Virus record (IMG/VR): IMGVR_UViG_3300009702_000018
Location: 39,046-103,045 of that record
Source of the DNA: a virus
Strand: one strand, 5' to 3'
Length of the DNA stretch: 64,000 bases
The notes under the pieces are model-generated. The model did not search any database, had not been told where the DNA came from, and worked only from the letters and a program-made list of their open reading frames with translations. Shown here piece by piece: positions 30,863-59,607 of this stretch. Made by a program: the position numbers and the translations under genes. Every line of letters begins with the position of its first letter. Positions within the stretch are counted from its first letter, which is position 1.

Positions 30863-31956
30863 TTTTCAAGCCCAATAAAAAATTGTAAAACTTTACCATC
30901 ATATAAGTATTGAATCTGATTTGAATCTTTTGTAACCCATTTTGTATCAGAAACTGATTTATATAATGCTTCTTTGAGATTTTTGCCATCTACAAACAAA
31001 GATAAATCAAGATCTCCAGAAGACTCAAATAATTTAATTGTTTCATATGCATGTGTCCTATTTTCTACAAATAATGTTAAAGTATCTTTAGAACACTTAA
31101 TTCCTACTGAATTAGTTTCAGTATCTGAAAAAATTAAAATTCTATTTAAAGCATCTAATACTGTATCTGGATCAATTTTAATATAATAAGCATCATCCAA
31201 TTTATCATAATTATCAATAATCTCTTTTATTTCTTCATATGGATATTTAGTTTCAATTGTAGTAGTAAATATAAAATTTTCAGTATTTCCAATAATTTTT
31301 CCATTTGATACAGAAATATGAATTTCTCCTACTTGTCCCACATTCATCAAACAATCACATGCTTTTTTATGCAATGATAAATCATTTACACTTTTATCAA
31401 AATCAATAGTAGCTCCTCTAATTCCATCACAAGCAATCATTCTTCCATCTGTAATATAAATATTTTGAAGATCATATTGAGACAAATCTTTTGACAAACA
31501 ATGTGAAATACTATTATATTTGTCTGTAAATTCTTTAACGGAAATTTGATAATCTGGAGTATAAACTTGATAATAATCAATATCTAAAAGTTCTCCATTT
31601 TCTGATGCATATTCTTCGTCCAAAAGAGGAAGAGTATATTTAGAATTTCCATGTATAAAAAAGCATTTATTATCCTCAAAAGATATGACAACTTCTCCAT
31701 TGTTAAACCCATTAATTAGCCCGAATAAATACTTTCCCAAGATATATCTATTTTCTTTATCTTCGTCTTTCATATCATAATAATTAATAAATACTGAACC
31801 AATCGTATAATTATCAAATGCTTTTAATTCAATTTGATTTCTTTTTAATCTTATCAATAAATATCTATAAATTAATTGTGTATGATTGTGATTAATAATT
31901 GAATTTAAAATTTGCATCGCTTTTTTTAATTCTGATATTGTTGTTTTAAATTTCAT
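30859..31956 (-). CDS. dnaN: DNA polymerase III beta sliding clamp
   Basis: 365 aa; MKF....ELKKA, IACDGIR, ALNRI..F, beta-clamp pattern. Confidence 0.75.
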   Translation of the reverse strand: MKFKTTISELKKAMQILNSIINHNHTQLIYRYLLIRLKRNQIELKAFDNYTIGSVFINYYDMKDEDKENRYILGKYLFGLINGFNNGEVVISFEDNKCFFIHGNSKYTLPLLDEEYASENGELLDIDYYQVYTPDYQISVKEFTDKYNSISHCLSKDLSQYDLQNIYITDGRMIACDGIRGATIDFDKSVNDLSLHKKACDCLMNVGQVGEIHISVSNGKIIGNTENFIFTTTIETKYPYEEIKEIIDNYDKLDDAYYIKIDPDTVLDALNRILIFSDTETNSVGIKCSKDTLTLFVENRTHAYETIKLFESSGDLDLSLFVDGKNLKEALYKSVSDTKWVTKDSNQIQYLYDGKVLQFFIGLEK

Positions 31957-53313: not shown

Positions 53314-53618
53314 TTATTAGCCTTACAACAAAAAAAATACTAATACACTCTGATTCTCCGGATCATATTAGTGTTAATGGAGTATTTTTATGCAATTCTT
53401 TGGGTAAAAAAACCGATATAAGAACTATGAGAACATTGACAAGTTTTTCTCCTAATAATTATGTACCGACATTATCCGTTAATAATTATATGAAATATCT
53501 GGAAGAGAATCATCATCGAATAATATGCGAAGATTGTATGGTCGCATTAAAAAAAATAGATAAGGAAGCTTATAGAAAAATAGATAGAAATGGCAGATGT
53601 GTTATGTGGAAAAGTTAA
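53310..53618 (+). CDS. Zn-binding protein (family D)
   Basis: HISVNGVFLC...CEDC. Confidence 0.6.
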   Translation: MIISLTTKKILIHSDSPDHISVNGVFLCNSLGKKTDIRTMRTLTSFSPNNYVPTLSVNNYMKYLEENHHRIICEDCMVALKKIDKEAYRKIDRNGRCVMWKS

Positions 53619-54030
53619 ACAAAGGTTAGTTAAAATGTATAAAATACCAAAAATTGAAGAAAAAACAAAAACTAAATTAGCTACCGACAAAGTACCAAGT
53701 CTAAAAAAAGAATATAATCTAAAAAGGAAACTTACAGTAGGAAAATATATGAGAGAAGTAGCTCTGGTATATAAGAAATTAAAAGACTGGCAAACAATCG
53801 AACGAGCCGATTTAATTATTCCATATGAATTTACAGAACAAAAGAATCTGCCCACAGGATATAGAATTTGGTATTTATCTCAAAGTAAAGGAGGAAACTA
53901 TTATAATGGACAATTCTTTGATTTGAAAATTAGTGGAAAGAAAAAACAAATAAGGAAAGAATGTAAATTAAGTAAGGAAGCTATAAAATTCTTTTCTTCA
54001 TACGATATAAAGAATGGAGATGAGATATGA
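53590..54030 (+). CDS. Basic hypothetical protein
   Basis: 146 aa ORF in the operon. Confidence 0.6.
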   Translation: MADVLCGKVKQRLVKMYKIPKIEEKTKTKLATDKVPSLKKEYNLKRKLTVGKYMREVALVYKKLKDWQTIERADLIIPYEFTEQKNLPTGYRIWYLSQSKGGNYYNGQFFDLKISGKKKQIRKECKLSKEAIKFFSSYDIKNGDEI

Positions 54031-54335
54031 TTATTCACCTAAACAAAGATTGGTTAGATAGAATAGAATTATGTTGGACTCACTATGAAAGTAATTCTAA
54101 AATACATATAAAGATAGATGGTAAAGAATTATGTCTATCTTATAATCCTTTCTGTTGTATAAATAACCAAGAATCACGGTTGTTAAATATAATGAGATTT
54201 CAACTTCGTTCCTCTTATTTATGTAAACATTGTAGAAAGAAACTGGAGAATAAATATATATCCGTTGAGATACTTTCATCTCTCGCCGAAAAAAAATTAA
54301 ATATCCTCGAAAAATGCTTGACAAACCATATATGA
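54027..54335 (+). CDS. Zn-binding protein (family D)
   Basis: HIKIDGKELC...CKHC. Confidence 0.6.
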   Translation: MIIHLNKDWLDRIELCWTHYESNSKIHIKIDGKELCLSYNPFCCINNQESRLLNIMRFQLRSSYLCKHCRKKLENKYISVEILSSLAEKKLNILEKCLTNHI

Positions 54336-54346
54336 TTATGTATATT
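54318..54346 (+). promoter_or_regulatory. Promoter of the ubiquitin-like operon
   Basis: TTGACA-N17-TATATT, then AAGGAG RBS. Confidence 0.75.
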
Positions 54347-54393
54347 ATGTTTGCAACTAAAAAACAAAAACCCTTAATTAAAGGAGAAATCAA

Positions 54394-54612
54394 ATGATTT
54401 CTATCAACATCATTAGTGGTGCTAATGAACACAACAATGTATCCGTTAGCAATGGGTATACTGTAGGTGATCTTCGTGAAGACTTTGGGAGTGCTTTCGG
54501 TATCCCATATGGCTCAAACGCTGTTATTGACGGAGTAAATCGTTCTGACGATTATGCTCTTCGTGATGGAGATACCATCACGTTTCAGAAAGAGACTGGA
54601 ACAAAAGCATAG
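54394..54612 (+). CDS. Ubiquitin-like beta-grasp protein (Ubl)
   Basis: 72 aa; TVGDL helix, A.IDG, LRDGDTITF, flexible tail KETGTKA. Confidence 0.85.
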   Translation: MISINIISGANEHNNVSVSNGYTVGDLREDFGSAFGIPYGSNAVIDGVNRSDDYALRDGDTITFQKETGTKA

Positions 54613-54639
54613 TCTTGTTGTTCCATCAGATTATAACAT

Positions 54640-54669
54640 AAGGGAGAAGAGTCCTTCTCCCTTTCTTTT
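54640..54669 (+). terminator. Terminator/attenuator between Ubl and E2
   Basis: AGGGAGAAG-agtc-CTTCTCCCT followed by TTCTTT. Confidence 0.7.
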
Positions 54670-54683
54670 AAGAAAGGAAAAAA

Positions 54684-55463
54684 ATGAGTGAAATTATTTT
54701 GACCGAGAATACAGCAAAGTTAGTAGAAAGGACTGTGATTCACGAAATCCCGTTAATGGATTTTTTGAACTCTGTTAACAAAAATATTCCACTAATATTT
54801 CCAATATTACCCAATAATATTCGTGGATTTATAAGTGGAGAAGTTACTTCTAACTTGATTATAGAGCAAGCTCCGAGAAAGATAAAATTGAGATTTAGAA
54901 CAACCGAGAATGAAGACAGTGAGGAAGATGATCGGATCTTTAATTTCAATGTATATATGCCGTATATCTATTATAATATCAATATTCAAAATAATCCTGT
55001 TTTGATAAATACTGTCAAAATGGCATTTGCTACAGCACCTGTAACAGACGAAAACTCAATATTGGGAACTATGCCGATGCCCAATATTGATGGCAGTCAA
55101 ACAATTTGCTTAGGAGATATAAATATCAAAGATGATTTACCTCTTCATATGGCAATTTCTGAATTGATTATTAAAATCTTATCGTCTGTTTGGAACTCTG
55201 ATTTATTTGATATAGATGGGATGGAGCCCATTCCATTCTTTAGTAAAGCGATAAAAAAATATGCAAATCATAATAGGTTAAAAGAACAATCTGATGATGA
55301 GGTTGCTAAATATTTAGTTACCCACGATTATAATGCCTTTGTCTCATATTTGTATGCTTGGGATGAAGCCACTCAACATATGAATTTACCTGAATTTATA
55401 AAAGCATTGACTTTTTCTCATACTTTCACTTATGGCAGTTATTTAAGAAGCACAGGAGTATAA
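54684..55463 (+). CDS. Prokaryotic E2-like protein (family D / PRTRC-B-like)
   Basis: PYIYY...AFAT...L..MPMPNIDGSQTICLGD with putative catalytic Cys. Confidence 0.72.
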   Translation: MSEIILTENTAKLVERTVIHEIPLMDFLNSVNKNIPLIFPILPNNIRGFISGEVTSNLIIEQAPRKIKLRFRTTENEDSEEDDRIFNFNVYMPYIYYNINIQNNPVLINTVKMAFATAPVTDENSILGTMPMPNIDGSQTICLGDINIKDDLPLHMAISELIIKILSSVWNSDLFDIDGMEPIPFFSKAIKKYANHNRLKEQSDDEVAKYLVTHDYNAFVSYLYAWDEATQHMNLPEFIKALTFSHTFTYGSYLRSTGV

Positions 55464-55467
55464 TAAA

Positions 55468-55833
55468 ATGAATGATTTCCAAACACTTAAAAATATATTT
55501 CAATATGTCTCTCCTTTGAAGAAAGTTCAAACTTTTCCTACCCCCAAATTCGCAGAGAGAAATATTGGAGTAATAGTCAAAGAAACAGGAAGCCCTATTA
55601 CAAAAAAGAATTTTGAATCAGTAAATTTCATTAGGTCTCAAATTGCAGATTATTATCGGAATAAAGGATACAACAATTCATCTAAACAAGCAGTTGCGGT
55701 CGCTTCAGCATTATTCAGCATACTGGGAGAAAATTCCAATCATATGATAAATCAATTAACTGATAGTTTAAAATTTGACGTAATGGCAAAATCTATCAAG
55801 AACCTACTCGTAATAAAAGGAAGAAGAAAATAA
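55468..55833 (+). CDS. Unknown protein within the Ubl operon
   Basis: 121 aa; TAATG-coupled to the JAB gene. Confidence 0.65.
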   Translation: MNDFQTLKNIFQYVSPLKKVQTFPTPKFAERNIGVIVKETGSPITKKNFESVNFIRSQIADYYRNKGYNNSSKQAVAVASALFSILGENSNHMINQLTDSLKFDVMAKSIKNLLVIKGRRK

Positions 55834-56717
55834 TGTCTTTACCTGTATTTTATAAGCTAAAAGATAAATTCTTTGATGTGGCAACAAATCAAGAAGTTGA
55901 TATTAAAGAAGTCAGCTACGGATTTGTTATAAGCAAAAAAGGATTATTTTCAATTCTTGTCTCAAAAGGACATTCTATTATAAGACCTGCAAAAACAGAA
56001 TTGGAACGCTTTGATGAAATAGAAGAAGAAGTAACCTACAATTATCCAAAAGTATCTTATGCTATTTATAGTAAAGCCCTCCAATTCTTCAGAGAAGTAT
56101 ACAAAAAACATCAAAGCGAAGGTGCTTTATTATTAGTCTTAAATAGAACACAGCCCTTAGAGGAACAAGAATATAAAATCTATATTCCGAAGCAACAAGT
56201 AAGCACTGCTGGAGTTGATTATACCGTTGATCATTCTGAATTGGGTAAAGATGAATTTCTGGCAGGGTCAATTCATTCTCATCCTGACTTCGATGCATTT
56301 CAATCGGGTGTGGATGAAGAAGATGAGTTTACTTTTGATGGAGTTCATTTAACATTCGGACATATTCAACAAACTGTTCCCGACATTCACGGAAGAGTTG
56401 TGTTAGCAAGACAATCTTATGAGGCAAAAGATTTGATTGAGATTGCTCCTCCCTCATCAGATACAATCCCAGAAGATTGGATGAAGAAAGTAGAAAAGGA
56501 AACTTACAATGCTATTGTTGGAAATTATATGAATAATTATGGTAATTATGGGTATAATGGATGGGGCGAAGAAATATATCACAATCAGAACCGAAATAAA
56601 AATTCACAACAATATAATTTTTCCTCTAATAGTGTCGAAGAACTAATTGCGGCGATGAAACCTAAAAATCTTGTCAATAATAAGCACACAAAAAAACTAA
56701 AACCTATATTAAAGTAA
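55833..56717 (+). CDS. JAB/JAMM metalloprotease (deubiquitinase-like)
   Basis: SEG...PKQQVS...GSIHSHPDFDAFQSGVD: E-x(n)-HxH-x7-S-x2-D. Confidence 0.88.
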   Translation: MSLPVFYKLKDKFFDVATNQEVDIKEVSYGFVISKKGLFSILVSKGHSIIRPAKTELERFDEIEEEVTYNYPKVSYAIYSKALQFFREVYKKHQSEGALLLVLNRTQPLEEQEYKIYIPKQQVSTAGVDYTVDHSELGKDEFLAGSIHSHPDFDAFQSGVDEEDEFTFDGVHLTFGHIQQTVPDIHGRVVLARQSYEAKDLIEIAPPSSDTIPEDWMKKVEKETYNAIVGNYMNNYGNYGYNGWGEEIYHNQNRNKNSQQYNFSSNSVEELIAAMKPKNLVNNKHTKKLKPILK

Positions 56718-56727
56718 AGGAGACAAA

Positions 56728-57432
56728 ATGAATTTCAAAAATTTTAACAAAATCGTCATAGTTGGAGACGGGGGAGTTGGAAGCAATCTCGTTGTTCCTC
56801 TTATGAAATTTATCAAGACAATGAGAGAGTTAGGTTTCAATAATAAACTTGACCTCTTTATTTGTGATGGAGATGTTGTTGAAAAGAAAAATCTGGCAAG
56901 ACAAGATTTTGTGTTTTCAGATATAAGGAAAAACAAAGCAGAAGCAACGGCATCATATATCGCTTCTTCATTTCCTGTCGAAGATGTAAAGATAATTCCC
57001 GTTTCGGAATATATTAAAGCAAATAATTTGGAGTTCGTAAGCGATGGAACTATTTTATTCGTCGGTGTCGACAACTATATTACAAGAAAAACGATTGAGG
57101 ATAAAATGAAAGAAATTAATGGAGAAATTCTCGCAATCTTCGGAGGGAACGAATATGATGATGGAGATGTAAATGTAGTTCATAAAACAAAAAGTGGGTT
57201 TACCACCCCATTATATTCTAAAAAGCATCCTGAAATAATGAAGAAGGATAGATTCCCAGATGAAATAGGATGTGAAGAAGCGGCACAAACTACTTCTCCT
57301 CAATTGATATTCACAAATATGATGGTAGCTAATTATATGTTGGAAGCGTTTTATGCTTGGGCAACAAATAAAGTGCAATGGCACGAGAAACTATTTGATT
57401 TAAAAACAGGAGCAGTGAGGGTAGTAAAATGA
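56728..57432 (+). CDS. ThiF/E1-like Ubl-activating enzyme
   Basis: VGDGGVGS, DGDVVEKKNLARQ, NKAE, GVDNYITR, GCEE (putative catalytic Cys), PQL..TN. Confidence 0.9.
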   Translation: MNFKNFNKIVIVGDGGVGSNLVVPLMKFIKTMRELGFNNKLDLFICDGDVVEKKNLARQDFVFSDIRKNKAEATASYIASSFPVEDVKIIPVSEYIKANNLEFVSDGTILFVGVDNYITRKTIEDKMKEINGEILAIFGGNEYDDGDVNVVHKTKSGFTTPLYSKKHPEIMKKDRFPDEIGCEEAAQTTSPQLIFTNMMVANYMLEAFYAWATNKVQWHEKLFDLKTGAVRVVK

Positions 57433-58070
57433 AAGGACAAATTAACATTCAAAAACACAATACAAAAATTCAATTGGACAACTTAAAAACAATAATAGAT
57501 AATGGTATATTTGAACAAGATTATTGGGTATTCAAAAGATTACTCGCCATTATGATGTCGCAAAATCATTATATCTGGAAATTCTTTCACGATGTAACAA
57601 AAGGAGTTGCTCCTAATAAACGAGTAGATATATCAGAAAAGGCTGATTATGCTTCGGATTTTATGAACGCAATGTTTGAATTAACTGGAGCATTAGATAA
57701 TATATTCAAAGAAATAGAAAAGAAATGGACTTCTTTTAATCATCATTCAGAATATAATGGATATTATTCTACTTCTTATCATACCAAAATAACAAATCTA
57801 TTCTATGACGATTTATTTTCTGGAGCATCTAAAGAAGAAAGTCCTTCTTATTATATGAGTCTATTAGGAGATAGTTACTTTGATAAAGAAGTCCATAAAG
57901 AATTATTCAATATATTATTGGATGCAATATGTTCTTTCGATAATATTGCTACAAAATATTGTATGGAAATTGAACCGAGAGAAAGTAAGGAAGATAGATG
58001 GAAATATATAGAAAAAGAAGTCGCAAAAATAAGGAAGCAAAATAAAAAGACATATTTATTATCTTTTTAG
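57429..58070 (+). CDS. Unknown helical protein coupled to E1
   Basis: 213 aa; ATGA overlap with E1. Confidence 0.65.
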   Translation: MKGQINIQKHNTKIQLDNLKTIIDNGIFEQDYWVFKRLLAIMMSQNHYIWKFFHDVTKGVAPNKRVDISEKADYASDFMNAMFELTGALDNIFKEIEKKWTSFNHHSEYNGYYSTSYHTKITNLFYDDLFSGASKEESPSYYMSLLGDSYFDKEVHKELFNILLDAICSFDNIATKYCMEIEPRESKEDRWKYIEKEVAKIRKQNKKTYLLSF

Positions 58071-58079
58071 GAAATAAAA

Positions 58080-58751
58080 ATGTTAGATATAATCGAAAAA
58101 AATAAGCCTTTGATAAGAAAAATCGCAACCAGATTATGTAAGCAAAATCAAGATTATACCTATGATGATATTTCGAGAATGACCATTACTTCTCTATATG
58201 AATCTTATTCAAAGGAAAAGAAAATCAATTTCATAGATATATATACTAAAACACTAAATAGGATATTAGAAGAAAAAGGTTTCAAATATATAAATGAAAA
58301 ACCTATTAACATATTATCTAACGAGCCTATTGTAGAAAACCAAAATAAAAAATATTATGACCTCATTAACAAACACTCCATTAAATCTTTGATTGATATG
58401 GCGTTCAAAAATACTAAACTAACTCAGGAAGAAATATTTATTATATCTTTGTCTTTCAATTTGGATACCCCAGATGCATTAAAAGGTGAATATAAAAATA
58501 AATTGGACAATATTGAACCCATATATTATATGAGAAAATTAACCAAAAAAGAAATTGCTAAAATAGCAGGAATGACTCCTTCTCAAGTTGCAAGGATTCA
58601 AAAGAAAGCCCTTATGAAAATGGAACAACATTGTGTTATTGAACCTGCTAAAAAATTTAAACGGCTACTTTTGAAAAATGCAAAAGCTATTAGGAAAGAG
58701 AAGAATCGCAATGTTAAAGCTGGAACAATTCATTGGTCAAAAAAAGATTAA
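58080..58751 (+). CDS. Sigma-70 family factor
   Basis: IEKNKPLIRKIA (region 2.1); LTQEE...LTKKEIAKIAGMTPSQVARIQKKAL (region 4 HTH). Confidence 0.78.
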   Translation: MLDIIEKNKPLIRKIATRLCKQNQDYTYDDISRMTITSLYESYSKEKKINFIDIYTKTLNRILEEKGFKYINEKPINILSNEPIVENQNKKYYDLINKHSIKSLIDMAFKNTKLTQEEIFIISLSFNLDTPDALKGEYKNKLDNIEPIYYMRKLTKKEIAKIAGMTPSQVARIQKKALMKMEQHCVIEPAKKFKRLLLKNAKAIRKEKNRNVKAGTIHWSKKD

Positions 58752-59607
58752 ACAGGAATTACAATTTTATATAATCAATTCCAATACTAACAACATTCCC
58801 CTACCCCACACAATATTATATGGAAGTGCGGGATTGGGAAAAACTTCGTTGGTTCATGTTGTAGCAAATGAAACAAGCTCCAATTTAATTGAAAAGACAG
58901 GTAGCGAATTAAATACAAAAATAATTCAGGAAATATTACAAAAAATATATTTTGGTACAATCTTATTTATTGACGAAATACATAATATGCCGACAAAATC
59001 TGCTGAGGTATTGTATACCCCTATGCAAACGATAAATAACCAAATGCTACAACAACAAATTGATAGTTTTGATTTTGAAGGCATATCAATATCTCCTTTT
59101 ACAGTCATAGGAGCAACAACATCTGCAGGCATGTTATTAAAACCTTTCAGAGATAGAATGATATTGGACTTTCATTTTCAATTATATACAAAAGAAGAAT
59201 TGGTTCAAATATTACTGAACAACAAATGTCCTCTCAATATAGCGAAAATGATTGCCGATAGATCAAGGGGAGTTCCTCGTATCGCAGTAAATTTCTTTAT
59301 AAGGATAAGAAATGAATCTATAATTGAAAAATATATTACGGAAGAAAAATGTTTAAAATTTTTTGACAGAATAGGAATTAATAAAGATGGATTCAATGCT
59401 ACTGATAGAATGATATTGGAATACTTATATGAATATAAAGTGGCAAGCGAATCTGAACTCACAAAAACTTTAGGAATAGATTTATTTGATTATAAAAACA
59501 TATATGAACCTTTTTTATTATCAAAGAGAACAATAAAAATTTCCAGTAAGGGCAGACAAATTACAGATAAAGGAATTGAATATTTTGAAGAAAATTTTCA
59601 GGAATAG
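58711..59607 (+). CDS. ruvB: RuvB-like Holliday junction branch migration AAA+ ATPase
   Basis: FIGQ, HTILYGSAGLGKTSL, LFIDEIH, PFTVIGATT.AG.L.KP.RDR, SRGVPR, YEPFL...GR. Confidence 0.88.
   Translation: MLKLEQFIGQKKIKQELQFYIINSNTNNIPLPHTILYGSAGLGKTSLVHVVANETSSNLIEKTGSELNTKIIQEILQKIYFGTILFIDEIHNMPTKSAEVLYTPMQTINNQMLQQQIDSFDFEGISISPFTVIGATTSAGMLLKPFRDRMILDFHFQLYTKEELVQILLNNKCPLNIAKMIADRSRGVPRIAVNFFIRIRNESIIEKYITEEKCLKFFDRIGINKDGFNATDRMILEYLYEYKVASESELTKTLGIDLFDYKNIYEPFLLSKRTIKISSKGRQITDKGIEYFEENFQE

Follow-up and report, generated by a model that had tools for sequence, protein, structure and literature searches.

Introduction

Bench studies of bacterial ubiquitin-like protein (Ubl) conjugation have centered on three families, type II CBASS, Bil, and Bub, and a paper that treats these families makes no mention of PRTRC (PMC11601603). 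All three are encoded by the bacterial host, and two of them, CBASS and Bil, act as anti-phage defenses. PRTRC (ParB-Related, ThiF-Related Cassette) appears, judging by its genes, to match operon type 6d as defined by Iyer, Burroughs, and Aravind, a class predicted in 2006 and composed of a Ubl with a C-terminal Gly, an E2-like protein, a JAB peptidase with an N-terminal domain, an E1, and a fast-diverging α-helical protein (PMC1779556). In the literature that mentions PRTRC, we found no functional study of the PRTRC/type 6d class. Here, we describe a PRTRC-like cassette, Ubl-E2-X-JAB-E1-Y, in a phage sequence from IMG/VR (record IMGVR_UViG_3300009702_000018). The cassette probably specifies a working Ubl protein-conjugation cascade of the PRTRC/type 6d kind, reduced to its enzymatic core. 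The stretch of DNA analyzed, hereafter the window, comprises 64,000 nucleotides (bases 39046-103045 of the record), and all feature coordinates refer to it.

The viral record spans 103,045 bp with direct terminal repeats. A tape-measure protein, portal, large terminase, class I ribonucleotide reductase, and sliding-clamp-like protein are encoded in the minus-strand half of the window. The structural module, at 1-30 kb, is on the strand opposite to the cassette, which lies in an arm of small genes. The terminase shared at most ~31% identity with that of any cultured phage, the top matches being from Bacillus Basilisk-like phages and Microcystis phage MaeS, and a blastn search with the 3.8-kb cassette found no match among cultured phages. 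No integrase or resolvase was detected in the entire 103-kb record. The source is thus probably a virulent tailed phage of an uncultured lineage. We also considered a prophage-borne defense system, which is less likely as the record contains neither integrase nor resolvase.

Components of the cassette

The cassette consists of six co-oriented open reading frames (ORFs) on the + strand at 54394-58070, exactly where a preliminary description, made from the sequence alone, had set them. The products of two of these, the Ubl and the E2, were modeled using AlphaFold.

The Ubl (54394-54612, + strand) is a β-grasp protein of 72 aa. At the sequence level its matches were weak: a word-index homolog search returned the query alone, Pfam gave a ThiS-like match at E 0.037, and six of ten homologs matched ThiS at E 0.0015 or weaker. 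The AlphaFold2 model, built from 10 homologs, had a predicted local distance difference test score (pLDDT) of 86.9 and a β-β-α-β-β-β order of elements, with residues 69-72 disordered (pLDDT <50) as in conjugated Ubls. Foldseek placed SUMO1, ubiquitin, NEDD8, MoaD, and Caldiarchaeum ubiquitin at the top of its matches (template modeling score 0.65-0.78, probability 1.0). Thus, the predicted structure bears out the preliminary assignment of a 72-aa β-grasp protein.

Comparison of the C-termini of approximately 80 distinct phage Ubls revealed that 53 end exactly in G-x-K-G and that 24 carry 1-67 further residues; all but three keep G-x-K-G. Such ends, together with the tailed forms, are the pattern expected of a conjugation system with a processing protease. 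The window Ubl aligns with its relatives residue for residue until the final position, at which Gly is replaced by Ala. The protein ends in F-Q-K-E-T-G-T-K-A followed by a stop (codons GCA TAG) and not in the terminal Gly of a conjugatable Ubl. A single base change, GGA to GCA, accounts for the replacement. The Ala end can be read in three ways: as a real variant that is still activated, as a disabling mutation, or as an assembly error. Many phage Ubls (those of loci L131, L106, L080, L134, L082, L104, L129, L067, L094, and L058) have a one-residue cap after G-x-K-G, usually Cys (...KGC).

The E2 (54684-55463, + strand; 259 aa) is of the Prok-E2_D/PRTRC_B type. An exhaustive HMMER search yielded homologs in 96 cluster representatives. 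In an alignment of 68 of these, P93, N134, and the putative catalytic residue C142 were invariant, and G144 was nearly so. N134, C142, and G144 lie in the stretch M-P-N-I-D-G-S-Q-T-I-C-L-G, which has the pattern P-N-x7-C-x-G; we take its P-N-x7-C spacing to resemble the canonical H-P-N-x7-C-L of the eukaryotic E2 active site. The Prok-E2_D model (PF14460) matched 27 of the 68 homologs, with a best E of 2.3e-10, and PRTRC_B (TIGR03737) matched 18, with a best E of 3.2e-7. Sequence searches of the Protein Data Bank (PDB) with the E2 or its profile returned chance-level matches only. The invariant cysteine and the Prok-E2_D matches of the homologs agree with the earlier view of this product as an E2-family-D-like protein with a PN...IC(L)G cysteine.

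The AlphaFold model of the E2 (pLDDT 93.7, predicted template modeling score 0.86) had a UBC/RWD-type fold. In a Foldseek search of the PDB, 10 of the first 11 rows contained an E2 (UbcH7, Pex4) at E 0.014-0.11, in a weak list that extended to E 0.4. An all-against-all structural search using VIA-align 2 placed RWD domains and E2s at the top, with Z 4.2-5.7 over 117-136 aligned residues; the matches included E2S, UbcH5, Ube2T, Ubc12, Ubc9, Pex4, the Tsg101 UEV, and RWD domains. The best matches in a viral structure library were 'uncharacterized protein' entries of uncultured phages (E down to 1.5e-10). The UBC fold predicted for the E2 is convincing through the agreement of these structural matches with the sequence evidence, not through Z alone.

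The JAB (55833-56717, + strand; 294 aa) is a JAB/JAMM metallopeptidase with an additional N-terminal domain, as in PRTRC_A. It matched Prok-JAB (PF14464) at E 8e-4, under the gathering score, and PRTRC_A (TIGR03735) at E 4.1e-8 over residues 31-194 (33 bits versus a cut-off of 101.8). Matches in the PDB were weak and were to Rpn11. The full JAMM zinc site is present as E96...H148-S-H150-x7-S158-x2-D161. All five residues were invariant in 12 sequences, so the JAMM protease motif reported previously, E...HSH-x7-S-x2-D, is indeed intact.

The E1 (56728-57432, + strand; 234 aa) is a compact, single-domain protein of the ThiF type. It matched Pfam ThiF (PF00899) above the cut-off (E 1.9e-15), PRTRC_ThiF (TIGR03736) at E 1.1e-21 (77.3 bits versus a cut-off of 144.75), the CBASS Cap2 E1-E2 models of PADLOC at up to E 2e-9, and MoeB models. 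Its homologs were 41-71% identical, the closest being P0002 (71%), P0017 from a 130-kb NCBI contig, and P0020 from a 118-kb contig. The protein contains the motifs GDGGVGS and IGC(182)EE. In 22 E1 sequences, G13, G15, G16, G18, D47, D49, R58, Q59, K70, D115, and the putative catalytic residue C182 were invariant; by analogy with MoeB and ThiF, we presume that they supply a Rossmann-type GxGxxG loop, the Arg-Gln and Lys of an ATP site, a Mg-binding Asp, and a Cys for the thioester. The GxGGxG nucleotide-binding motif and GCEE cysteine noted previously are thus conserved features of the family.

Relationship to PRTRC and other systems

We used hhalign to compare profiles of the phage enzyme families with the proteins of a Methylomonas PRTRC locus. 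The probabilities were 95.2% for the E2 with PRTRC_B, 96.0% for the JAB, including its N-terminal domain, with PRTRC_A (residues 28-200), and 98.7% for the E1 with PRTRC_ThiF. The three enzymes are thus remote homologs of PRTRC B, A, and ThiF, and 'PRTRC-like', a label used in the preliminary description, names the right nearest family. The canonical PRTRC locus of Methylomonas koyamae plasmid pFW12EY (L054) is ordered ParB - 144 aa - PRTRC_C (Ubl) - 406 aa - PRTRC_B - PRTRC_A - 71 aa - ThiF. The cassette resembles PRTRC in having a small, stand-alone Ubl (ending ...K-G in PRTRC and in the phage relatives), a compact ThiF-type E1, a JAB with an N-terminal domain, and a stand-alone E2-like protein that has a conserved Cys and is without the classical His of HPN. 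The order Ubl ... E2 - JAB ... E1 and carriage on a mobile element are also common to both.

The two differ in their other genes. PRTRC includes ParB, a large α-helical protein of 406 aa in L054, and other accessory genes, whereas the phage cassette has none of these and carries X, Y, and a further gene, up2, instead. Thus, the cassette lacks the ParB and the accessory genes D, E, and F that are among the features of PRTRC (NCBIfam TIGR03734-03742). ParB_N was not detected in the 103-kb record by a search whose control matched 11 of 14 genomes, and no ParB was seen in the syntenic relatives L034-L046. X, Y, and up2 gave no NCBIfam match, and hhalign probabilities of ≤0.4% with the 144-, 406-, and 71-aa accessory proteins of L054. 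In the phage E2, the Asn of P-N is invariant and no His after the Cys is conserved, which sets it apart from the type 6d E2 described by Iyer et al. Finally, PRTRC is borne by plasmids or integrative and conjugative elements, whereas the window cassette is in a probably virulent tailed phage and its Ubl ends in Ala. Judged from sequence, the cassette is the enzymatic core of a PRTRC-like system with its own modifier and accessory genes.

The cassette shares fewer features with the other systems. Bil (BilABCD, types I and II) likewise has four separate genes in the order Ubl - E2 - JAB - E1 (PMC10557695, PMC11601603). Conjugation has been demonstrated for Bil, and its E1-to-E2 thioester relay and its maturation and deconjugation by the JAB match what is predicted for the phage system. 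However, the E1 of type II Bil is a large enzyme of two domains that includes an inactive adenylation domain together with a mobile CYS domain (PMC10557695), whereas the 234-aa phage E1 is a single ThiF domain with its Cys in the body of the fold. Moreover, Bil belongs to the host and acts on phage tail proteins, while the cassette is phage-encoded, and we detected no sequence link between the two. CBASS Cap2/Cap3 has a ThiF-type adenylation domain, E2 and JAB partners, and conjugation through a protein C-terminus. In CBASS, the E2 and E1 are fused and the C-terminus of the CD-NTase serves as the 'Ubl', whereas the phage has a dedicated β-grasp Ubl and neither CD-NTase nor effector. Bub (6E/DUF6527) also combines a Ubl, E1, E2, and peptidase in a conjugating set, and its Ubls have variable N-terminal domains as in some phage relatives, but the phage cassette has neither the fused proteins of Bub (Ubl-E2 with JAB-E1, or E2-E1) nor its DUF6527 serine protease (PMC11601596, PMC11601603). 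The TAPI Ubl and TAPK JAB-NlpC/P60 protein of lambdoid and T1 phages (Iyer et al. 2006, row 5) are a phage β-grasp protein with a C-terminal Gly and its JAB partner. They have no E1 or E2 and lie inside the tail module, and their Ubl is processed, not conjugated.

Distribution of the cassette

To locate related cassettes, viral contigs of IMG/VR were scanned with the JAB profile alone, as E2 alignments were too variable to serve as queries. Scans with single E1 and E2 sequences had confirmed no locus, such that profile queries were needed. The JAB profile found 126 contigs. Of the 80 that were kept, 72 had adjacent genes for Ubl, E2, JAB, and E1, and contig ends truncated most of the others. 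The order up2-Ubl-E2-X-JAB-E1-Y-sigma-like-RuvB-like, whole or cut by contig ends, was found in short metagenome contigs L034 and L037-L046 and in a 111-kb viral contig, L056.

Three layouts were distinguished. Layout A is that of the window, Ubl - E2 - X - JAB - E1. Layout B, the commonest, has the E2 domain within a protein of 820-890 aa, followed by JAB - E1 - Ubl; its Ubl is preceded by a fused Rho_N or SAP domain, and a second, longer ThiF-like gene often occurs 1-2 kb downstream (L057-L135; e.g., L062:2343-9108 and L004:1166-9176). Layout C has two E2-like genes - JAB - E1 - Ubl. A radical-SAM-like gene is found upstream in L004, L006, and L007.

The cassette also occurs in cultured phages, where its genes are annotated as hypothetical, 'structural protein', or ThiF only. 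It corresponds to gp211, gp214, gp215, and gp216 in Bacillus phage vB_BceM_WH1 (L053, LC597490.1 178788-184817) and to gp246c-248c in Salmonella phage Arash (L136, OQ632216.1 176281-179301). Vibrio phage D69 (L137, VPHD69_0301-0307) encodes E2, JAB, and a weak match to the Ubl profile, with an E1-like region identified using tblastn and not using the E1 profile. Overall, large tailed phages commonly carry a conserved, ParB-less module that corresponds to the PRTRC-like enzymatic core. In the literature searched, from which subscription journals were mostly missing, we found no paper on a phage-encoded E1/E2/JAB/Ubl system and no report of the prevalence of the PRTRC/type 6d class as a ParB-less module of tailed phages.

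In addition, Butyrivibrio hungatei plasmid pNP144 (L055, NZ_CP017832.1 67.8-72.3 kb) carries E2-like, JAB, and ThiF genes beside genes for Rad52, a helicase, DNA polymerase III delta, and a single-stranded DNA-binding protein. This 144-kb plasmid is non-mobilizable and may be a phage-plasmid.

Transcriptional organization

A promoter-like site, TTGACA-17-TATATT, lies ahead of the Ubl gene (54318-54346, + strand). It matches the sigma-70-like consensus at 11 of 12 positions and is tied best between 53500 and 60000, consistent with the dedicated TTGACA/TATATT promoter proposed in the preliminary description. We regard it as a putative sigma-70-type promoter. The pattern TTGACA-N16-18-TAWAWT occurs at seven sites in the window versus 0.85 expected, and none of 100 shuffled sequences reached seven. 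The seven TTGACA(AACC)-N-TATATT sites are at 31491, 46163 (minus strand), 50824, 52479, 54318, 59633, and 63400; five of them are on the + strand at 50-64 kb.

The spacings from the Ubl through Y are 71, 4, -1, 10, and -4 nt. The 71-nt gap between the Ubl and E2 genes contains a hairpin with a U-rich tail (54640-54663, + strand), resembling a terminator-like attenuator. A terminator scan gave this hairpin 10 pairs, five of them G-C, and RNA folding gave a 9-bp stem with z = -2.3. Based on this G+C-rich hairpin and U-rich tail, read-through from the Ubl into the enzyme genes is probably attenuated. On the + strand, the last terminator-like site in the scan was at 55215-55232, within the E2 gene, and after 54318 no + strand promoter match of 11/12 was found ahead of 59633. 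The transcription unit thus probably runs on through the sigma-like and RuvB-like genes that follow Y, and its end at 58070 is arbitrary. Of the six-gene operon previously delimited at 54318-58070, the tight packing of the six ORFs stands; its boundaries and continuity are modified by the hairpin-containing gap after the Ubl and by the likely extension past 58070.

Proposed function

Gene content, folds, catalytic residues, the homology to PRTRC A, B, and ThiF, and the retention of the four-gene set in phages together favor a conjugation cascade. From these features we infer the following thioester chemistry, conjugation, timing, attenuation, and targets. Host RNA polymerase would start at the sigma-70-type promoter at 54318, and the hairpin after the Ubl gene would result in more Ubl than enzyme message. 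The compact E1 would adenylate the flexible C-terminal tail of the Ubl and take the Ubl onto Cys182 as a thioester. Transfer of the Ubl to Cys142 of the E2 would follow, and the E2 would then attach it to an amino group on a target protein. The JAMM peptidase would mature the tailed pro-Ubls of relatives and remove or edit conjugates. X, Y, and up2 would be lineage-specific accessories, most plausibly for target choice or regulation. Our best guess is that the targets are DNA- or transcription-associated proteins of the phage or host, modified early in infection; this guess is based on the sigma-like and RuvB-like neighbors, the Rho_N- and SAP-Ubl fusions in relatives, and the ParB in PRTRC.

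Several observations weigh against this interpretation. The scores of the window proteins all fell short of the curated PRTRC and Prok-JAB cut-offs, and the window E2 itself gave no direct Pfam or NCBIfam match. The structural matches of the E2 were middling (Z 4-6, Foldseek E ≥0.014), and scores of this size also arise from chance arrangements. For the Ubl, no similarity to PRTRC_C (TIGR03738) was detectable by sequence, there being no NCBIfam match and an hhalign value of 0.4%. It is alone among the approximately 80 phage Ubls in ending in G-x-K-A; the Ala end may impair or alter activation or deconjugation, or it may reflect an error in the assembly. We could identify no E3, target, or adaptor, and the guess at a target class derives from gene neighborhood. 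Finally, we found no biochemistry on the phage cassette family or PRTRC.

Two other roles in infection were considered for an active cassette. In one, the JAB or the whole cascade would undo or jam Ubl-based immunity of the host by stripping the Bil Ubl from tail proteins, by removing Cap2-made CD-NTase conjugates, or by tagging and inactivating defense proteins. The characterized bacterial Ubl systems, type II CBASS and Bil, are anti-phage and include a JAB that reverses conjugation (PMC11601603). A counter-defense role would also suit a phage that is probably virulent, having no integrase or resolvase, a cassette that appears to be transcribed with the small-gene arm behind host-type promoters, and an E1 with weak similarity to Cap2 models. 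However, deconjugation requires the JAB alone, yet the Ubl, E2, and E1 are kept in 72 of the 80 loci. The only PADLOC match was to the generic E1 region of Cap2, X, Y, and up2 contained no anti-defense family, and the JAB is nearest to PRTRC_A, not Cap3 or BilC. Overall, counter-defense appears unlikely. It is also quite unlikely that the cassette functions in the virion or its assembly, whether by attaching the Ubl to, or cleaving it from, structural or packaged proteins or by having its enzymes packaged and injected. A Ubl and JAB pair has been described for lambdoid tail assembly (PMC1779556), and gp211 of vB_BceM_WH1, which contains the Ubl, is annotated as 'virion structural protein'. Similarly, the E1 and E2 homologs of Arash were labeled 'structural protein' from liquid chromatography-mass spectrometry of particle preparations, but the list of 116 particle proteins includes ribonucleotide reductase, RNA ligases, and other enzymes, so that carry-over is likely (PMC10585845). 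The label demonstrates that the proteins are expressed, not that they act in the virion, and the gene numbers of the paper and the record may differ. Furthermore, the cassette belongs to the arm of small genes, opposite in strand to the structural module, and the genes next to it are sigma-like and RuvB-like, with no virion genes among them.

The remaining alternatives are that the window cassette conjugates nothing. The Gly-to-Ala change may have disabled the modifier, leaving the enzymes as relics of a decaying cassette. The G-x-K-A end, unique among the Ubls and explicable by one base, is what suggests such decay, but the catalytic residues of the E1, E2, and JAB are all intact, and the six ORFs are uninterrupted and closely spaced downstream of a near-consensus promoter. 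An assembly error would explain the base equally well. In addition, ubiquitin with a terminal Ala can still undergo activation and conjugation, and it is poorly deconjugated. We thus consider inactivity very unlikely. Least probable, to the point of being nearly discounted, is a sulfur carrier, with the ThiF-like enzyme making a Ubl thiocarboxylate for thio-modification of a cofactor, tRNA, or DNA. At the sequence level the Ubl matched ThiS or ThiS-like models only (E 0.0015-0.14), MoaD was among its structural matches, and the E1 matched ThiF and MoeB models. Nevertheless, the record encodes neither rhodanese nor MoaE over its 103 kb, extending the preliminary observation that no sulfur-transfer (Thi/Moa) genes are nearby, and family scans of the proteins examined revealed no thiazole- or molybdopterin-synthase partner. 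In 72 of the 80 loci, the E1 and Ubl are accompanied by an E2 with an invariant Cys and a JAMM peptidase, neither of which is needed for sulfur transfer, and the C-terminally extended Ubls need proteolytic maturation.

More tentatively, tailed phages may widely use their own Ubl conjugation offensively in lytic infection, tagging DNA-, transcription-, or defense-associated proteins of the host or their own; we regard this generalization as possible rather than probable. If true, it would represent a prokaryotic counterpart of the ubiquitin machinery of eukaryotic viruses and a mirror of the Bil and CBASS Ubl systems of hosts. The carriers vB_BceM_WH1, Arash, and D69 are culturable, making the use of a Ubl tag by phages directly testable. 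A function for the phage cassette would also provide the first functional handle on PRTRC.

Accessory and neighboring genes

X (55468-55833, + strand; 121 aa) is kept in position and evolves fast. In all Ubl-first cassettes that were checked (L034, L038-L043, L056, L058, L084, L095, and L104), the gap between E2 and JAB is taken up by an ORF of 98-140 aa. The sequence of X diverges very fast, often with basic residues at its end, and a profile search returned its own training sequences only. A weak match of X to a PHROG 'minor head protein' (E 0.0025) and a DUF4080 match (E 0.003) were dropped as noise. Y (57429-58070, + strand; 213 aa) is kept in the close clade only. Using phmmer, it matched the gene after E1 in L037 and L046 (E 1e-5 and 3e-4, respectively), with a common G-V-x-P-N-K...E-K..Y block. 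In some other relatives, the protein at the Y position has a Cys-rich N-terminus.

The gene up2 (53590-54030, + strand) encodes a protein of 146 aa with no recognized family. It matched the gene just before the Ubl in L034, L039, L042, and L043 (phmmer E 1e-22 to 1e-32) and an ORF approximately 1 kb upstream of the Ubl in L056 (L056:1954-2352; E 3.5e-23). It is better conserved than the Ubl, and one database relative was found. In the closest relatives, up2 immediately precedes the Ubl gene; in the window, the two are separated by a small Cys-containing ORF and the promoter. The gene may be a seventh component of the module.

X, Y, up2, and their homologs gave nothing significant in Pfam, PHROGs, NCBIfam, or PADLOC. 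For X and Y, the ESM Atlas provided low-confidence models (pLDDT 0.43) and no usable neighbors. The preliminary description had listed X and Y as two unknown ORFs and candidate substrate adaptors; neither indeed has a detectable family or fold, and a role of X, Y, or up2 as adaptors is speculation.

Downstream of Y, the window encodes a sigma-70 region-4 protein (58080-58751, + strand; Pfam Sigma70_r4, E 4.5e-6) and a RuvB-like AAA+ ATPase (58678-59607, + strand; Pfam RuvB_N, E 2.4e-32, and RuvB_C, a winged helix, E 5e-12). The two genes overlap by 74 nt. A sigma-like gene follows the cassette in L034, L037, L038, L040-L044, L046, and L056, and the RuvB-like gene matched its counterpart in relatives at E 1e-69 to 1e-89. 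Both genes come after the cassette in all close relatives; they are syntenic with it and probably co-transcribed.

The small Cys-containing ORF between up2 and the Ubl (54027-54335, + strand) encodes 102 aa starting M-I-I-H-L, and its 3' end is overlapped by the Ubl promoter. Relatives are without this ORF at this position but have many similar small, Cys-rich ORFs starting M-I-I-x-(F/L) elsewhere in the same arm.

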